From a virus (lineage: Duplodnaviria; Heunggongvirae; Uroviricota; Caudoviricetes), in IMG/VR virus record IMGVR_UViG_2671180427_000006, positions 1-4,715 of that record: a stretch of 4,715 nt of DNA, one strand, 5' to 3'. Positions within the stretch are counted from its first letter, which is position 1. The number at the start of each line of letters is the position of its first letter. The notes beneath the pieces were generated by a model that made no database searches, was not told where the DNA came from, and saw nothing but the letters and a program-made list of their open reading frames with translations. The position numbers and the translations under genes were made by a program. Shown here in pieces: positions 1 through 4,715 of this stretch.

Positions 1-1692
1 GTCAGTGGTGCAACTGAGCCGGAGTGGTACTACGTCATCGTACTGGCCGGGCAGTCCAATGCCATGGCTTACGGTGAAGGGCTTCCGCTTCCGGATTCAT
101 ACGATGCGCCCCATCCGCGCATTAAGCAACTGGCCCGTCGTAACACAGTGACTCCCGGTGGTGAAGTATGCGTATTTAACGACATCATTCCTGCTGACCA
201 TTGTCTGCATGATGTTCAGGATATGAGTACGATTAACCATCCCCGGGCTGACCTGAGCAAAGGGCAGTACGGCTGTGTCGGACAGGGCTTACATATTGCC
301 AAAAAACTGCTTCCGTATATCCCTAATAATGCGGGGATCCTGCTGGTACCATGCTGTCGTGGTGGTTCGGCATTCACCCAGGGCACGGAGGGGACATTCA
401 GCGAGTCCACGGGGGCCAGTCAGGATTCGGCTCGCTGGGGAGTGGGTAAGCCGTTATATCAGGATCTGCTTTTCCGCACGAAGGCAGCATTGCAGAAAAA
501 CCCGAAAAACGTTTTGCTGGCGATATGCTGGATGCAGGGGGAATTCGATATGACGAATGCCAGTTACGCCCAGCAGCCAGCAGCATTTCTTGCAATGGTA
601 CAGCAGTTCCGTGCTGACCTTGCCGGGCTGGCGGCGCAGTGTCACGGTGGAAGTCCGGCATCAGTCCCCTGGATTTGTGGCGACACGACATACGCGTGGA
701 AACAAGAACACGGTACGCAATATGAAGTGGTATATGGTGCATATAAAGGTAAAGAATCCCAGCAGATTTATTTTGTTCCCTTTATGACCGATGGTAGCGG
801 AGTTAATACACCGACAAACAACCCGTCAGAAGATCCTGATATTGTCGGGTCTGGTTATTACGGTTCGGCATCCCGAACGAACAAAAACTGGGTATCATCA
901 AATCGCCCGACGCATTTCAGCTCATGGGCGCGTCGTGGCATTATTCCCGATCGTATGGCAACCGCTATTCTGAACGCAGTCGGGCGCACCTCAGCCTTCA
1001 TCAGTGGTAAGGCACCGGAAATCAAACCCTCGCCCGGCGGCGACACGCCATCGGGTCCGTCTGCAGATACGTCCGTTCGCACAATCTCCCTGCTGCCGAC
1101 AGCCGGAGAGGCTGCTGCGCAGGGCTGGACCATTAAGGACGGCGGAATTCAGTTGTCGGGTGGTGTATTTAAGATCGCCAAGCAGAGCAATAAAACCTGG
1201 TCCCTGACGCGCCCGGTGGATGACGCAGTCTCCCTGCTGACACGGGGTGGCAGACTGAGCTGTAAGTTTCGACTGTCAGGCGCACTGACCAACAATCAGT
1301 TCGGTCTGGGAATTTATCTGTATACCGATGTAGCGTTACCTGACGTCGTGGCGATGACGGGTACCGGTAACCCGTTCCTGATGTCGTTCTTCACCCAGAC
1401 CACAGACGGCAAACTGAATCTGATGCATCACAAGAAAGCAGGAAACACAAAGTTGGGCGAGTTCGGGAATTACAGTAACGACTGGCAGACGCTGGAGCTG
1501 GTGTTCACCGCCGGCAGTGCCACGGTTACTCCGAAACTGAATGGAGTGGCTGGCCCGGCATTCCAGGTCATAAAAGACAGTCTGACACTGGGGCTGAATG
1601 CGCTGACGCTGACGGATATTACCAAAAATGCAGCGTATGGCGTTGAGATAGAAAGTCTGGTGCTGGAGATAAATGCACCGGCATCATCATAA
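1..1692 (+). CDS. nanS-p: Sialate O-acetylesterase, SGNH/SASA family (NanS-p-like prophage esterase); 5'-partial, start lies upstream of window
   Basis: The reading frame is open from base 1 with no stop before the first ATG at 64. The conserved motif YVIVLAGQSNAM spans that ATG, so Met-64 is internal. GQSN (catalytic Ser block), a downstream Gly block (CCRGGSAF), the WMQGEFD (QGE) block and a later His fit SASA-type carbohydrate esterases. Stop TAA at 1690-1692. The long C-terminal Gly/Thr/Ser-rich extension is of unknown function. Confidence 0.8.
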   Translation, partial: VSGATEPEWYYVIVLAGQSNAMAYGEGLPLPDSYDAPHPRIKQLARRNTVTPGGEVCVFNDIIPADHCLHDVQDMSTINHPRADLSKGQYGCVGQGLHIAKKLLPYIPNNAGILLVPCCRGGSAFTQGTEGTFSESTGASQDSARWGVGKPLYQDLLFRTKAALQKNPKNVLLAICWMQGEFDMTNASYAQQPAAFLAMVQQFRADLAGLAAQCHGGSPASVPWICGDTTYAWKQEHGTQYEVVYGAYKGKESQQIYFVPFMTDGSGVNTPTNNPSEDPDIVGSGYYGSASRTNKNWVSSNRPTHFSSWARRGIIPDRMATAILNAVGRTSAFISGKAPEIKPSPGGDTPSGPSADTSVRTISLLPTAGEAAAQGWTIKDGGIQLSGGVFKIAKQSNKTWSLTRPVDDAVSLLTRGGRLSCKFRLSGALTNNQFGLGIYLYTDVALPDVVAMTGTGNPFLMSFFTQTTDGKLNLMHHKKAGNTKLGEFGNYSNDWQTLELVFTAGSATVTPKLNGVAGPAFQVIKDSLTLGLNALTLTDITKNAAYGVEIESLVLEINAPASS

Positions 1693-1777
1693 AAAGTGAG
1701 CCAGTCAAATGGAAGGTATCGTTAAACTCACCGGTAGTGTCAGTGGGGCGTCTGAGATGCCTGCATGAGTTATCAGA

Positions 1778-1807
1778 GCCATCAGTACTTAACTGGTGGC
1801 TTTTTTT
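1778..1807 (+). terminator. Rho-independent terminator between the esterase gene and the holin
   Basis: Stem GCCATCAG (1778-1785) / CTGGTGGC (1793-1800), 8 bp with one G-U pair, 7-nt loop TACTTAA, followed by TTTTTTT (1801-1807). Confidence 0.55.
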
Positions 1808-1842
1808 ATTGTTGTCAGCTTCCGGATAACGGGAGACGGGGT

Positions 1843-2058
1843 ATGTACCAGATGGAAAAAATCACAACAGGTGTGTCATACACCACGTCAGCGGTGGGAA
1901 CGGGCTACTGGTTCCTGCAGTTGCTGGACAGGGTTTCCCCGTCTCAGTGGGCGGCAATAGGCGTGCTGGGGAGTCTGCTGTTTGGGCTGCTGACATATCT
2001 GACTAACCTGTATTTCAAAATCAGAGAGGACCGTCGTAAGGCTGCACGGGGAGAGTAA
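1843..2058 (+). CDS. S: Class II holin, phage 21 S-type (pinholin family), 71 aa
   Basis: [71 protein letters not shown]. Two TMDs, the first Gly/Ala/Ser/Thr-rich (SAR-like), with a charged C-terminus; near-identical in pattern to S21/EssD as recalled. SD GGGAG (1831-1835) 7 nt before ATG 1843; a second in-frame Met at codon 4 gives a dual-start motif. Confidence 0.9.
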
Positions 2059-2062
2059 TTCA

Positions 2063-2413
2063 ATGACTCAAAACTATGAACTGATTGTGAAAGGGATCCG
2101 CAATTTTGAGAATAAAGTTACGGTAACTTTAGCGTTACGGGACAAAAAACGCTTTGACGGTGAAATTTTTGACCTGGACATCTCGCTGGACCGTGTTGAA
2201 GGTGCCACGCTGGAGTTTTATGAGGCAGCAGCCAGAAGGAGCATCAGACAGGTCTTCCTGGATGTTGCTGCCGGGTTATGTGAAGGGGATGAGCAGTCGC
2301 CGGAAAAGCGCCCCGTAATTTTAGAGGCGCAGAATGTATGGATAACCTACAAAGGAAAGCTACCGGGAATAATTACTGGTTCTCTGAAGACTCCTCCGGA
2401 ATCACAACCTTAA
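2063..2413 (+). CDS. ydfR: DUF1327 family protein (YdfR-like), 116 aa, conserved but uncharacterised lysis-cassette gene
   Basis: SD GGGAGAG (2049-2055) before ATG 2063, starting 4 nt after the holin stop. The N-terminal sequence MTQNYELIVKGIRNFENKVTV and the position between holin and endolysin match my recollection of YdfR in the E. coli Qin prophage (essQ-ydfR-rrrQ). Confidence 0.72.
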   Translation: MTQNYELIVKGIRNFENKVTVTLALRDKKRFDGEIFDLDISLDRVEGATLEFYEAAARRSIRQVFLDVAAGLCEGDEQSPEKRPVILEAQNVWITYKGKLPGIITGSLKTPPESQP

Positions 2414-2476
2414 GTCACTGACCGGAACAGATAAACCTGTCCGTGGGCAGAAACCGATAAATCCTGATAAATATCC

Positions 2477-3010
2477 ATGAACACCAAAATCAAATACGGC
2501 CTGTCGGCTGCCGTTCTGGCGCTGATTGCCGCTGGTGCGCCTGCGCCTGACATTCTCGACCAGTTTCTGGATGAAAAGGAAGGTAACCACACCACGGCAT
2601 ACCGTGATGGCGCGGGTATCTGGACCATCTGCCGCGGTGCCATCCTGGTGGATGGCAAACCTGTCGTTCCTGGCATGAAGTTGTCGAAGGAAAAATGCGA
2701 CCGGGTTAACGCCATTGAGCGTGATAAGGCGCTGGCATGGGTGGAGAAAAACATCAGAGTGCCATTGAGTGAACCCCAGAAAGCGGGGATCGCGTCATTC
2801 TGTCCGTACAACATTGGCCCCGGTAAGTGTTTTCCGTCGACGTTTTATAAACGAATTAATGCAGGTGATCGCAGGGGAGCGTGTGAGGCGATTCGCTGGT
2901 GGATTAAGGACGGTGGCAGGGACTGCCGTATTCGCTCAAATAACTGTTACGGTCAGGTATCCCGTCGTGACCAGGAGAGCGCGCTGGCGTGCTGGGGAAT
3001 CGACAGATAA
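2477..3010 (+). CDS. R: SAR endolysin (T4-lysozyme-like muramidase with N-terminal signal-anchor-release domain), 177 aa
   Basis: Weakly hydrophobic Ala/Gly-rich N-terminal TMD (LSAAVLALIAAGAPAP) followed by catalytic E35-x8-D44-x5-T50 (EGNHTTAYRDGAGIWT), as in phage 21 R21. Pairs functionally with the pinholin upstream. Confidence 0.92.
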   Translation: MNTKIKYGLSAAVLALIAAGAPAPDILDQFLDEKEGNHTTAYRDGAGIWTICRGAILVDGKPVVPGMKLSKEKCDRVNAIERDKALAWVEKNIRVPLSEPQKAGIASFCPYNIGPGKCFPSTFYKRINAGDRRGACEAIRWWIKDGGRDCRIRSNNCYGQVSRRDQESALACWGIDR

Positions 3011-3101
3011 GCAGAATATTTTGCTAATAAATGACGTTGGCCAAGGCGGATGGATAACACGAAATCCTGCGAACTGGCAAAATGTAAGTGAATAAAAGTA
3101 A

Positions 3102-3140
3102 AAACCCCGTTTGTTGGCAGCAAGCGGGGTTTTGTTTTTA
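3102..3140 (+). terminator. Strong Rho-independent terminator (bidirectional in appearance) about 90 bp after the endolysin
   Basis: Stem AAACCCCGTTTG (3102-3113) / CAAGCGGGGTTT (3121-3132), 12 bp with one G-U, 7-nt loop TTGGCAG, then TTTTGTTTTT. An A-rich tract upstream (AATAAAAGTAAAA) gives a T-tract on the opposite strand. Confidence 0.75.
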
Positions 3141-3204
3141 TGGCAGTAAGCTATGGGAGGCTGCCTTGATTGATTTTAGCAAACTGATTAGGGAGTTGCG
3201 ACTC

Positions 3205-3300
3205 ATGATTAGTCAATTACCAAACTGGAAATTTTTGCTGGTCTGGAGCATCCCTTTTTTATGGGTAGTATCCCAGTTAATTGTGGCAATTAAGGGGTAG
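3205..3300 (+). CDS. Hypothetical small hydrophobic peptide, 31 aa (MISQLPNWKFLLVWSIPFLWVVSQLIVAIKG)
   Basis: ATG 3205 preceded by SD GGGAG (3191-3195) with 9-nt spacing; one predicted TMD; stop TAG 3298-3300 sits 2 nt before the next ORF's ATG. Too short for the supplied ORF track. Confidence 0.4.
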   Translation: MISQLPNWKFLLVWSIPFLWVVSQLIVAIKG

Positions 3301-3302
3301 CT

Positions 3303-3434
3303 ATGTCAGACAAACTCATAACGCCGGCAAAGGTCCTGTGTGTGATTGTCGGTATTTCATTTTCACTAATGCTGGTTGCTCTTTTTCTGTCCTTCGCCTG
3401 GGTGATGTTGTCTTCGTCGGGGCTGCTGGGGTGA
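3303..3434 (+). CDS. Hypothetical small membrane peptide, 43 aa (MSDKLITPAKVLCVIVGISFSLMLVALFLSFAWVMLSSSGLLG)
   Basis: ATG 3303 with SD AAGGGG (3293-3298); polar N-terminus then a ~26-residue hydrophobic segment (single TMD); stop TGA 3432-3434 overlaps the GTG of the next ORF (GTGA). Confidence 0.45.
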   Translation: MSDKLITPAKVLCVIVGISFSLMLVALFLSFAWVMLSSSGLLG

Positions 3435-3553
3435 CAGTGACTGATGACATCAGCAGAGCGCTGGCTTTTGCTATTAAGTGGGTGGCTGTTGGTATTGCTG
3501 TGTCTCCGATGCTGTATGGGCTGGCAAAACTGGTCATTGCGCTGAAATCGTGA
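3431..3553 (+). CDS. Hypothetical small hydrophobic peptide, ~40 aa from GTG 3431 (start uncertain; ...TDDISRALAFAIKWVAVGIAVSPMLYGLAKLVIALKS)
   Basis: Open frame ending TGA 3551-3553; candidate GTG starts at 3431 or 3437; shares the motif RA(L/M)AFAI(K/R)xVA with the next peptide. The longer TTG-3281 version in the ORF track overlaps the previous ORF and lacks an SD. Confidence 0.35.
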   Translation: MTVTDDISRALAFAIKWVAVGIAVSPMLYGLAKLVIALKS

Positions 3554-3564
3554 ACTTTAAAAAG

Positions 3565-3651
3565 ATGAGTGCTGAACTTATTCGGGCAATGGCATTTGCC
3601 ATTCGTATTGTGGCCATTGCTGTTCTGGTCTGGGCAATCCGTTGGTGGTGA
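3565..3651 (+). CDS. Hypothetical small hydrophobic peptide, 28 aa ([28 protein letters not shown]), paralogous to the preceding peptide
   Basis: ATG 3565, 11 nt after the previous stop; stop TGA 3649-3651 is 1 nt before the Rz ATG; single hydrophobic helix with a Trp-rich C-terminus; no strong SD. Confidence 0.35.
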
Positions 3652-3652
3652 T

Positions 3653-4147
3653 ATGAACCGTGTTCTGTGTGTGGTGATTATTGTCCTGCTGGTAGCCTGT
3701 GGTGTGCTTAGTCTGGGGCTGAATCATTACCGCGATAACGCCATCACCTACAAAGCGCAGCGCGATAAAAAAGTCAGTGAGCTGAAACTGGCGAATGCCA
3801 CTATTACTGACATGCAGCAGCGCCAGCGAGATGTCGCTGCGCTTGATGCCAGATACACGAAGGAATTAGCCGATGCGAGAGCTGAAAATGAAACTCTGCG
3901 CGCTGATGTTGCCGCTGGTCGTAAGCGCCTGCGGGTCAACGCCACCTGCCCCGGTACCGTGCGTGAAGCCACCGGCACCTCCAGCGTGGATAATGCAACC
4001 GGCCCCCGACTGGCAGACACCGCTGAACGGGATTATTTCATCCTCAGAGAACGGTTGATGACAATGCAGAAGCAGCTGGAAGGGGCGCAGGAATATATCC
4101 GCACTCAGTGCACTAAGCTGGCTTTTTATTATCCGGAGGATACATGA
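3653..4147 (+). CDS. Rz: Rz i-spanin (inner-membrane spanin subunit), 164 aa
   Basis: [40 protein letters not shown]..., an N-terminal TMD plus coiled-coil periplasmic domain, closely matching lambda Rz as recalled ([41 protein letters not shown]). ATG 3653 chosen over the upstream GTG 3569 of the ORF track. Confidence 0.92.
3873..4058 (+). CDS. Rz1: Rz1 o-spanin (outer-membrane lipoprotein spanin subunit), 61 aa, embedded in the +1 frame of Rz
   Basis: [61 protein letters not shown]: signal peptide with lipobox (VSAC), Pro-rich mature part, strong similarity to lambda Rz1 as recalled. SD AAGGA (3859-3863) 9 nt before ATG 3873. Confidence 0.88.
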
Positions 4148-4368
4148 AGAAATTACGGGTAACCGTAGAACCTTTTCAGGGAACAATTCCGTTCCGTATT
4201 TTGCAGCGTGGTCGTGTTCTTGTTGAAGGTTCGTTCAGTGGTAAATGTACGCAATTACACTCCCGGACCTTTCAGGTGAATGCCACGAATGAAGAGCTAA
4301 CCGTGGAGTGTACGATGAATGCCGCTAAATGCCGCATGGTATCCGCTGCATTACAGCCAGTGTGTTGA
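4144..4368 (+). CDS. Hypothetical protein, 74 aa, basic N-terminus, four Cys, no TMD; start overlaps Rz stop (ATGA)
   Basis: ATG 4144 overlaps the Rz TGA (4145-4147) and is preceded by SD GGAGGA (4135-4140). [74 protein letters not shown]. No family recognised by me. Confidence 0.45.
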
Positions 4369-4571
4369 GCGACCTTATTATCCATGCGCGGTATTGTCGC
4401 CGTATTCCTGCATTAACAGAGACCGCAGCCCGACAGGGAGACTCCTCTGCGCGAGTGTGCGGGGATAATCAAAAACGATACACACCGGGGTTTACCGCGT
4501 TAACGGAGCGCGGCGTTGTCCCCTCATAGTCGCCTGTCCGGTGCGATGGTGGAAGAAACCGGACTACATTG

Positions 4572-4594
4572 AAAATGATAACCATTATCATTTT
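4572..4594. repeat. Perfect 10-bp inverted repeat AAAATGATAA-CCA-TTATCATTTT resembling a Fur box, immediately upstream of cosQ/cosN
   Basis: Arms 4572-4581 and 4585-4594 are exact reverse complements. The core AATGATAACCATTATC matches the Fur consensus GATAATGATAATCATTATC at 15 of 16 overlapping positions. No properly spaced -10 element is evident. Confidence 0.5.
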
Positions 4595-4595
4595 T

Positions 4596-4680
4596 GCGGG
4601 TCCTTTCCGGCGATCCGGGCCGTTACGGGGCGGCGACCTCGCGGTTTTTCACTATTTATGAAAATTTTTCAGGGAAAATC
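4596..4680. other. cos: cos region of a lambda-type phage (cosQ-proximal flank, cosN, beginning of cosB)
   Basis: GCGGGTCCTTTCCGGCGATCCGGGCCGTTACG | GGGCGGCGACCT | CGCGGTTTTTCACTATTTATGAAAATTTTT closely matches the lambda right end, cohesive end and first bases of the left end (recalled lambda: ACGGGTCCTTTCCGGTGATCCGACAGGTTACG / GGGCGGCGACCT / CGCGGGTTTTCGCTATTTATGAAAATTTTCC). Confidence 0.85.
4628..4639. other. cosN: cosN 12-nt cohesive-end sequence (terminase nicking site; virion genome left end would begin here)
   Basis: Exact match to the phage lambda 12-nt 5' cohesive end GGGCGGCGACCT, preceded by GTTACG as at the lambda right end. Confidence 0.85.
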
Positions 4681-4715
4681 GTGTCGGTACTTCTCGAATA
4701 TAACTTTTTGTTTTT

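Follow-up and report, generated by a model that had tools for sequence, protein, structure and literature searches.

Introduction

Why should a lambdoid prophage set a terminator and a row of minute open reading frames (ORFs) between the genes for its endolysin and its spanins? The question is raised by a stretch of 4,715 nucleotides (nt) from a virus of the Caudoviricetes (IMG/VR record IMGVR_UViG_2671180427_000006, positions 1 to 4,715; the whole stretch is called the window here), which is the late region of an Escherichia coli lambdoid prophage. In this window, the signal-anchor-release (SAR)-type lysozyme gene R ends at position 3010 and the ATG of the i-spanin gene Rz stands at 3653, leaving a spacer of 642 bp between them. 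An initial annotation, made from the letters alone, had read this spacer as one insert of four tandem ORFs for hydrophobic peptides. Our computational analysis leads to a different picture, to which we give about even chances: the spacer would be a stack of mobile late-operon cassettes for single-pass membrane peptides, built by recombination, and the first ORF (ORF1) would be gated by an antisense RNA.

Results

Four short ORFs and their starts

As first proposed, the plus strand of the spacer holds four ORFs of 31, 43, 40 and 28 amino acids (aa), running from ATG 3205 to TAG 3300, ATG 3303 to TGA 3434, GTG 3431 to TGA 3553 and ATG 3565 to TGA 3651. Their packing was also described correctly: Shine-Dalgarno (SD) sequences precede the first two (GGGAG at 3191-3195 and AAGGGG at 3291-3296), ORF2 and ORF3 overlap by GTGA at 3431-3434, and a single nucleotide separates the ORF4 stop codon from the Rz ATG. 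Each peptide has one 19-residue hydrophobic window with a mean Kyte-Doolittle hydropathy of 1.9-2.9, in line with the single helix ascribed to it, and the terminator said to open the insert was called by a terminator scan (3101-3133 plus a T-run). The module had further been thought to be probably unannotated, which is not the case. RefSeq calls three or four of the ORFs 'hypothetical protein', and all four match PHROG families to which PHROG assigns no function (6632 for ORF1, 4906 for ORF2, and 1115, 3246 and 4493 for ORF3 and ORF4). The E-values are 1e-12 for a 70-aa form of ORF1, 5e-21 for ORF2, 2e-27 for ORF3 and 4e-6 for ORF4; full-length relatives reach 8e-41, 7e-24 and 6e-30. PGAP lists ORF2 as WP_001280933, ORF3 read from TTG 3398 as WP_042004856 and ORF4 as WP_032140280, sometimes adds ORF1 as the 70-aa protein WP_001043230, and several of the four are annotated in GenBank phage records as well. 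The PHROG and RefSeq records carry no function and no start-site curation, and they describe neither the mosaic nor the hairpin/antisense unit presented below. Scans of the four peptides against Pfam, NCBIfam and PADLOC gave zero matches.

The first ORF most likely starts upstream of ATG 3205, at TTG 3166, and would then encode 44 aa instead of 31 (3166-3300, phrog_6632), because homologues in other genera begin with ATG or GTG exactly at this position and an SD, GGGAGG (3155-3160), lies five nt before the TTG. The PHROG profile likewise spans the N-terminal extension upstream of ATG 3205, and hydropathy supports one membrane helix in the product, a predicted N-in single-pass membrane peptide. 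ORF2 (3303-3434, 43 aa, phrog_4906) also encodes a hydrophobic peptide, and an SD is found upstream of it in three different contexts.

ORF3 and ORF4 had been taken for diverged paralogues, and this was upheld by cross-matches to phrog_4493 and phrog_3246 and by an alignment over RAxAFAI(K/R). Compared with its relatives, ORF3 (3431-3553) is a 5'-truncated copy that keeps the 3' two-thirds of a full-length gene: fused behind the ORF2 stop are the last 118 nt of a gene for 48-60 aa (phrog_1115/3246), so that the last 38-40 codons of genes such as M(A/E/S)KYKRILLRLTMKNGLELKAPVTDDISRA... are retained. Its possible starts are GTG 3431, GTG 3437 and the TTG 3398 chosen by PGAP. A start at GTG 3437 would give a 38-aa product resembling the natural short forms P0082 and P0087, and this GTG stands at the same distance from GGGGTGA as does the Rz ATG in a spacer of the ORF1+ORF2 type (L074). 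ORF4 (3565-3651, phrog_4493) encodes 28 aa (MSAELIRAM...) ending in IRWW* 1 nt before Rz, with no clear SD upstream; it has relatives in P0194-P0196 and P0202 and is a natural short form of the ORF3/4 family. In the full-length peptides, a basic N-terminal flank (net +4) precedes a single helix, after which two to five C-terminal residues follow, an arrangement suggestive of an N-in/C-out orientation.

A mosaic between R and Rz

The assumption that this region is an insertion between endolysin and Rz proved sound, as the two genes abut in the K-12 prophages DLP12 and Qin and in loci L115 and L120 (0 nt, against 298-1400 nt elsewhere). The idea of a single coherent four-gene insert, however, had to be given up. 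ORF orders and combinations vary, and the window itself is mosaic: 3011-3434 matches spacers of the ORF1+ORF2 type and 3435-3670 those of the ORF3+ORF4 type, with a recombination junction at 3434/3435, exactly at the ORF2 stop codon. Eighty-one loci with an R21-like lysozyme and Rz contain 51 distinct spacer sequences, in length classes of 0, ~298, ~336, 426, 438, ~480, 642 and ~990 nt, and at least 39 arrangements were counted in a wider set of 109 distinct spacers. An ORF1-type gene or a full-length ORF4-type gene may stand alone; two-gene spacers combine ORF1 with ORF2, full-length ORF3 with ORF4, or full-length ORF3 with a following ORF2, the reverse of the window order, and spacers with ant and ORF2 occur in Shiga-toxin phages. 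Such a pattern is that of a recombinant patchwork of mini-gene cassettes, each shuffled independently, at a junction that is a general insertion hot spot.

At the left border, an untranslated leader follows the R stop codon on the plus strand (3011-3100); it is conserved at 84-94% identity across all spacer architectures, the ant-containing ones included, and a homologous stretch is present in Salmonella. At the right border, the last ORF of lambdoid architectures always ends in ...GG(T/G)GGTGA, 1-7 nt before the Rz ATG, and GGTGGTGA just 5' of Rz is common to cassettes ending in IRWW*. The Salmonella leader contains a perfect 7-bp hairpin, GGCGGAT-N8-ATCCGCC, of which the E. coli counterpart has just GGAT/ATCC. 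The Salmonella locus L286 has, upstream of leader and hairpin, a further hydrophobic ORF of 29 aa (MICFVAAFMLACDGRSGWGWFLLVGLIVM, 2724-2813), which shares ATGA with the SAR lysozyme gene at the stop codon of the latter. Other R-Rz spacers (L208, L174, L205, L041) hold an antirepressor gene (ant) preceded by a 39-aa ORF, a 311-aa DNA methyltransferase-like ORF and a 231-aa ORF, and further small hydrophobic ORFs such as MHVKDNNKTFLSIGCSMTPKAANIAGIILALSAMIGAIGFAVAAIAYVCR. An analogy of the leader and the ant-type spacers with IsrK-orf45-anrP was dropped, Rfam scores in the spacer being below threshold. The named homologues ynfQ, ynfR and ynfS were looked for in DLP12 and Qin of K-12, and none lies between R and Rz.

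The spacer is common in E. coli, at least in part. Several chromosomes contain the 650-bp stretch 3011-3660 with 100% identity. A match to some or all of it occurs in 2078 of 5426 complete genomes (~38%), with a median of two places per genome, and carriers usually have the spacer in several prophages, Shiga-toxin phages included.

Coding evidence and selection

Overlapping alternative ORFs of 57-90 aa exist in the spacer, and open frames alone are therefore no better than chance as evidence for genes. Two such longer readings were rejected: a 73-aa minus-strand ORF (3316-3537) that spans the recombination junction 3434/3435, and a 90-aa reading in the style of phrog_3246 (3281-3553), whose upstream part overlaps ORF2, has a ratio of non-synonymous to synonymous polymorphism (pN/pS) of ~1 and contains stops in 4/20 variants. 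Within E. coli, by the same measure, full-length ORF3 reaches 0.14 (polymorphic sites at codon positions 1/2/3 = 4/3/12), ORF1B 0.15 and ORF4 0.30-0.34. The corresponding ratio of substitutions (dN/dS) is 0.16-0.51 for the ORF3/4 family (E. coli, Salmonella and two distant phage contexts) and 0.13-0.64 for the ORF1 family across genera, and members diverged to below 50% identity retain frame, start position and hydrophobic core. The conserved frames and synonymous bias for which the initial annotation proposed a test are thus found in the ORF1 and ORF3/4 families, which are coding and under purifying selection, but not in ORF2. There, the pattern of synonymous and non-synonymous change could not be distinguished from randomly placed substitutions in 21/21 pairs, pN/pS is 0.71, and homologues were found in E. 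coli only. The ORF2 frame is open in 22/24 distinct alleles (two with compensating +1/-1 indels), and its start, stop and frame persist up to 23% nucleotide divergence. Its coding status is uncertain.

Frameshifted alleles are frequent for full-length ORF3 (4/17) and full-length ORF4 (4/8) and occur for ORF2 (2/24), while distinct alleles of the neighbouring genes are disrupted much more rarely (1/95 for R, ~5/90 for Rz). Copies with a destroyed frame and a conserved nucleotide sequence had been named in advance among the observations that would refute the proposal, as pointing to an RNA or structural element. They do occur, but they are a minority, and the cross-genus dN/dS is still that of coding DNA. 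Because frame-breaking indels are far commoner here than in R or Rz, the genes look dispensable, and we read these ORFs as real yet dispensable genes.

An alternative that we consider improbable is that ORF2, the ORF3 fragment and the short ORF4 are the debris of a recombination or moron hot spot, that is, non-functional leftovers or fortuitous frames in tolerated DNA. It would suit the loss of the native start and of at least 20 codons in ORF3, the neutral look of ORF2, across which a second frame is open in 16/20 variants, the missing SD of ORF4 and the common frameshifts. It would equally suit a spacer that ranges from 0 to ~1400 bp in relatives, hosts ant, a methyltransferase and other inserts, and is dispensed with altogether in some R/Rz pairs. 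Debris, however, agrees poorly with the purifying selection on the ORF3/4 core, with natural 38-aa short forms, which show that the N-terminal part is dispensable, with a junction between ORF2 stop and ORF3 GTG that mirrors the spacing of the Rz ribosome-binding site, and with the survival of the ORF2 reading frame described above. Moreover, the match spans at least 80% of the 650-bp query in 587 complete E. coli genomes.

The two families in other operons

The ORF1 family extends to Enterobacter, Klebsiella, Citrobacter, Providencia and Salmonella. A profile search of 1.84 billion representative proteins yielded only 20 relatives of the ORF3/4 family, which is thus narrow; no distant annotated relative was found in that search. 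The Salmonella example is a 60-aa ORF3-type gene placed between Rz and a different SAR lysozyme and accompanied by an HP1-type holin. In Enterobacter, where the holins are others again, a GH19 endolysin and an overlapping spanin pair enclose an ORF1-type gene; in another genome such a gene comes after an M15 peptidase endolysin. The endolysin-spanin position is therefore kept with unrelated holins, endolysins (R21-like, other SAR lysozyme, GH19, M15) and spanins. It is the usual site of the families, and not their only one. In related myovirus-like elements, P0197 (ORF3/4-type) and P0216 (ORF1-type) are found at one and the same position, ahead of a baseplate ('sheath initiator') gene; P0212 is located before the tail-tip gene J, and P0200 after tail-fibre genes. 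A role specific to the lysis cassette does not fit long-form families that also live in tail and baseplate operons. Occurring in lysis, baseplate and tail contexts alike, both families behave as interchangeable mobile late-operon cassettes, with the endolysin-spanin junction as their favourite site.

Also present in long-form ORF4/ORF3 cassettes is a mini-ORF of eight codons (M-V/C/G-REV-L/Y-SL*). It overlaps the GTG of the main ORF with its TGA and includes a strong SD, GGGAGGTG, for that GTG (L036 ~3689-3719; L286 2979-3003; L303 5793-5765, minus strand).

The preference for the endolysin-spanin junction, kept with four endolysin types, would also be expected if the peptides were plain accessory late-gene membrane proteins, modulators of lysis timing, of the spanins or of SAR endolysins, made without any antisense RNA, and if the hairpin were the terminator or attenuator of the gene upstream. 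We regard this as rather unlikely. The first 13 codons would then be a basic cytoplasmic segment followed by a second in-frame start, a dual-start arrangement as in holin/antiholin pairs. Indeed, an internal Met codon with its own SD is conserved in frame in both long-form families (in ORF1, TTG 3166 with GGGAGG and ATG 3205 with GGGAG), the N-terminal extension varies synonymously between distant members and so is translated, and the distance from the end of the last ORF to the spanin ATG is always 1-22 nt. The lack of an Hfq peak at the Sakai Sp4 cassette, taken up below, points the same way. The explanation is less at ease with the sites before baseplate and tail-tip genes and after tail-fibre genes, and with the absence of any Pfam holin match, the true holin of the window (1843-2058) being recognized as Phage_holin_2_1.

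Small membrane proteins beside holin, endolysin or spanin genes are well known: P2 LysA, the lambda S107 and phage 21 S71 antiholins and the Mu releasin gp25 are examples, and P2 lysA is itself located between endolysin and spanin genes. The peptides described here resemble them in size and membrane character, in having two possible in-frame starts and in their SAR-type endolysin neighbour in E. coli and Salmonella. In contrast, no homology was found, and the present families also occur outside lysis cassettes and behind GH19 and M15 endolysins.

A candidate antisense unit upstream of the long forms

What sets the long forms apart is the DNA in front of them. The start codon of all 12 long-form cassettes inspected is preceded, at a distance of 35-75 nt, by a GC-rich hairpin flanked 5' by an A-run and 3' by a T-run. 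The hairpin sequence varies with the context, its pairing is kept by compensatory pairs (10 cassettes from different genera and contexts), and U-runs follow it on both strands. With a limit of 125 nt, a hairpin was found upstream in 24/27 ORF1-long and 31/35 ORF3/4-long contexts (55/62; median distance ~40 nt), against 0/21 ORF2 and 0/11 short-ORF4 contexts (0/32). In the window, where ORF1 is the only complete long-form cassette, the terminator scan places this hairpin at 3101-3139, and it reads as a bidirectional intrinsic terminator. A terminator serving the plus strand only would need no conserved upstream A-run, and the travel of the hairpin with its ORF into unrelated operons is left unexplained if the peptides are plain accessory proteins.

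The second element of the proposed unit would be a promoter inside the ORF, directed against it. For ORF1, the predicted antisense promoter (3173-3201, minus strand) consists of an extended -10, TGCTAAAAT (3173-3181), and a weak -35, TCGCAA (3196-3201), with a 17-nt spacer; its score of 9 has a probability of ~0.013 per 20-nt window. Our own promoter scoring, which also counts the extended -10 and has this same background for each cassette, found a minus-strand promoter-like site in 12/12 long-form cassettes, with the -10 at ORF nt 8-13 in 11/12. In four divergent ORF3/4 long forms, a default promoter scan had called sigma-70-like sites on the minus strand, all at the same position (TGGACA-18-TATACT, TAGTCA-18-TATACT, TGGTCA-18-TATACT and TAGACA-18-TAACAT). 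Here the K-Y codons that directly follow the start codon supply the -10 on the complementary strand, and the codons around the conserved internal Met the -35. The site stands at the equivalent position in 6/6 ORF1-family cassettes, and the ORF1 and ORF3/4 sequences there are unrelated. The 17-mer GATTTTAGCAAACTGAT is identical in 5/6 ORF1 cassettes across genera and contexts, and the sixth (L302) differs by one synonymous base. Synonymous differences in the ORF1 family amount to 19/153 (12%) in codons 2-13, compared with 51/106 (48%) in the next 13 codons; the almost frozen synonymous sites of codons 3-7 are not readily explained by selection on a plain accessory peptide. A further minus-strand promoter-like site, at 3309-3280, is of a kind expected once per region by chance.

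Transcription from the ORF1 site would yield a cis-antisense small RNA (sRNA) of ~70 nt, running on the minus strand from ~3166 to ~3097, complementary to the ORF1 start codon and SD and ending at the hairpin. Its predicted fold shows a 3' terminator hairpin plus a U5ACUUUUAUU tail. We judge the chances that an antisense RNA of ~70 nt exists to be slightly better than even. The suggestion that the peptides are type I toxin-like accordingly divides: for ORF1 it gains computational support from the predicted antisense promoter and the bidirectional terminator, and for ORF2 to ORF4 it gains none.

Several points weigh against an antisense-gated stack of cassettes. The neutral pattern of ORF2 and the frequency of frameshifted alleles have been given above, and three of the four window ORFs (ORF2, ORF3 and ORF4) have no hairpin/promoter unit. 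The -35 of the ORF1 family is weak (3/6), and the default scan missed that promoter. The evidence for the antisense RNA is based on motifs and was gathered after the pattern had been seen, and the cassettes are phylogenetically related, so that they amount to about three independent observations. Another possible reason for the conservation of the first 13 codons is a functional N-terminal peptide together with an internal SD for the second start. A type I toxin mRNA usually has its own promoter, and a simple consensus-based scan found no plus-strand sigma-70-like site in 2900-3800. Rfam gave no match in the window at E<=1. Finally, no Hfq-bound RNA appears where one might have been seen, which is weak counter-evidence because cis-antisense RNAs often bind no Hfq. 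Of the 63 orphan RNA peaks bound by Hfq in Tree et al. (2014), none lies at the long-form ORF4 cassette of Sakai Sp4 (ECs_1094), and none falls in the R-Rz spacer of Sp4, Sp6 or Sp10, EcOnc11, EcOnc33 and EcOnc52 being elsewhere.

Comparison with known RNAs, toxins and morons

Among 14 related loci, no Rfam family reached its threshold in the spacer, and the gathering thresholds of OhsC, IsrJ, IsrK, AgvB and AsxR in particular were not attained. The best local scores were 21.6 bits against a required 50 for OhsC, a resemblance of terminators only, and 13.1 against 37 for isrJ; a rimP leader score of 14.8 bits on the minus strand of the spacer is a non-significant resemblance.

The closest geometry is that of the symE/SymR pair studied by Kawano, Aravind and Storz in 2007, in which the antisense promoter reportedly lies inside the first target codons and the RNA, of ~70-80 nt, starts next to the start codon, covers the SD and ends at an intrinsic terminator. 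The RNA predicted here has the same geometry. However, SymE is a soluble protein of 113 aa with its own SOS promoter, whereas the present peptides are membrane peptides of 28-60 aa without a promoter, encoded in phage late operons, their RNA being predicted and any toxicity hypothetical. Hok/Sok, Ibs/Sib, Ldr/Rdl, ShoB/OhsC and ZorO/OrzO pair small single-helix hydrophobic toxins with antisense RNAs (PMC2887945). Likewise, the peptides of the spacer are small and single-helix, and often occur as tandem diverged copies on mobile elements; they are 28-44 aa long with one hydrophobic window each, within the limit of about 60 aa usual for such toxins. The differences are the absence of sequence similarity and of a toxin promoter, and three ORFs out of four without a candidate antitoxin, the antisense RNA being predicted for ORF1 only (promoter-like site, bidirectional terminator and suppressed synonymous change). 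Membership among type I toxin-antitoxin systems is not established.

Short RNAs of lambdoid late operons offer another comparison. AgvB and AsxR are convergent short sRNAs at moron sites of lambdoid prophages (PMC4104026), and the prophage sRNAs PasA, PasC and PasD1 directly adjoin the holin/lysozyme operon (bioRxiv 10.64898/2026.05.13.724894). Like the RNA predicted here, these are RNAs of ~50-80 nt that oppose the late operon in lambdoid prophages of E. coli and end at shared terminators. They differ in that they are sited not in the R-Rz interval but upstream of the esterase gene, the sole location of AgvB in Sakai, or between the esterase and holin genes, and act in trans on core sRNAs; the spacer has no Rfam match, and the Sakai Sp4 cassette no EcOnc peak.

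A last alternative, which seems to us very unlikely, is that the ORFs are morons expressed by the prophage, with superinfection-exclusion or host-fitness peptides made in the lysogen from a promoter of their own. Insertion between conserved genes, small membrane proteins and a wide distribution among prophages would all be in keeping with it. The layout is not. A moron in the sense of Juhala et al. (2000) is said to be an inserted gene with its own promoter upstream and a terminator downstream; here, the DNA between the hairpin and the ORFs has no sigma-70-like promoter on the plus strand, and the terminator is upstream of the ORF. In addition, PADLOC returned no match, and the packing of the ORFs suits translational coupling with late genes.

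Neighbouring genes

The remainder of the window is that of a lambdoid late region. It comprises a SASA/NanS-p-type esterase gene (64-1692), the phage-21-type class II holin gene (1843-2058) and a YdfR/DUF1327 gene (2063-2413), followed by R (2477-3010, plus strand; Pfam Phage_lysozyme E=1e-23; 'lysozyme' in PGAP), the product of which has an N-terminus, GLSAAVLALIAAGAPAP, rich in Gly and Ala. Downstream of the spacer, Rz (3653-4147, plus strand; Pfam Phage_lysis E=4e-51) contains the embedded o-spanin gene Rz1 (3873-4058, plus strand; lipobox LVVSAC), and its stop codon is overlapped through ATGA by a 74-aa ORF (4144-4368), a hypothetical protein in PGAP that matches the middle of the 291-position profile phrog_2571, of unassigned function.

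The esterase-holin intergenic region (1693-1842) contains a terminator-like hairpin at ~1777-1806 and no Rfam family match. At 4571-4589, GAAAATGATAACCATTATC differs by 2 mismatches from the 19-bp Fur-box consensus GATAATGATAATCATTATC, where zero matches are expected by chance; its position is at, or shortly past, the 3' end of a YlcI/YnfO-family gene on the minus strand. The Hfq peak EcOnc11 of Sakai Sp10 is on the opposite strand ~75 nt downstream of Rz, and EcOnc12 of Sp9 is probably at the equivalent spot, judged by its distance to EcOnc03. Loci L085-L110 and others include many Rz matches of 69% identity on short contigs from taxonomically impossible hosts (Kitasatospora, Bacillota, Bacteroidetes), which look like contamination of public assemblies with phage lambda control DNA.

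Discussion

The scenario that we propose for the spacer is as follows. Since no plus-strand promoter follows the hairpin, the peptides would be expressed from the late transcript, which, antiterminated by Q, would read through the hairpin. They would be inserted N-in/C-out in the inner membrane late in infection, and the last ORF would hand ribosomes over to Rz across the GGTGGTGA-N-ATG junction. On the opposite strand, the promoter inside the first 13 codons of the long forms would fire and produce an RNA of ~70 nt, initiated at the start codon, complementary to the Shine-Dalgarno sequence and terminated at this same hairpin. As long as late mRNA is scarce, as in the lysogen or under leaky read-through, this RNA may block translation of the peptide and of what is coupled downstream; after induction it would be out-titrated, which would make it a type I toxin-antitoxin-like gate laid out in the manner of symE/SymR. 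The other three, ORF2, the ORF3 fragment and ORF4, would be passengers without a gate, and ORF2 and the ORF3 fragment may be non-functional. Most likely, the peptides act on the membrane as dispensable accessory factors that would modulate envelope or lysis events, and are not core lysis proteins.

More tentatively, and with chances that we place clearly below even, the window may be one case of a widespread and unrecognized class of mobile late-operon cassettes in enterobacterial phages, each made of a bidirectional terminator, a cis-antisense sRNA with its promoter inside the first 13 codons of the target, and a membrane peptide of 45-60 aa. Both the peptide and a translationally coupled gene, for instance that of the spanin, would be kept silent until the sRNA is overwhelmed by late transcription. 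As hypothetical proteins, the peptides are already on record. What would be new is a small membrane peptide gated by antisense RNA in a mobile late-operon format. Literature searches by phrase, peptide sequence, accession, locus tag and concept found no paper discussing these ORFs, and no description of a type I toxin-antitoxin-like layout in phage late operons was found either.

If this model is right, antisense-gated cassettes would add a regulatory layer to phage late gene expression and lysis, the puzzling terminator in the middle of the lysis operon would be explained, and a family of natural peptide/sRNA pairs moving between operons would come into view. Should the model fail, start sites in the current annotation are nevertheless corrected, and the spacer would still be a clear case of short conserved flanks recombining to shuffle mini-genes in a moron hot spot.

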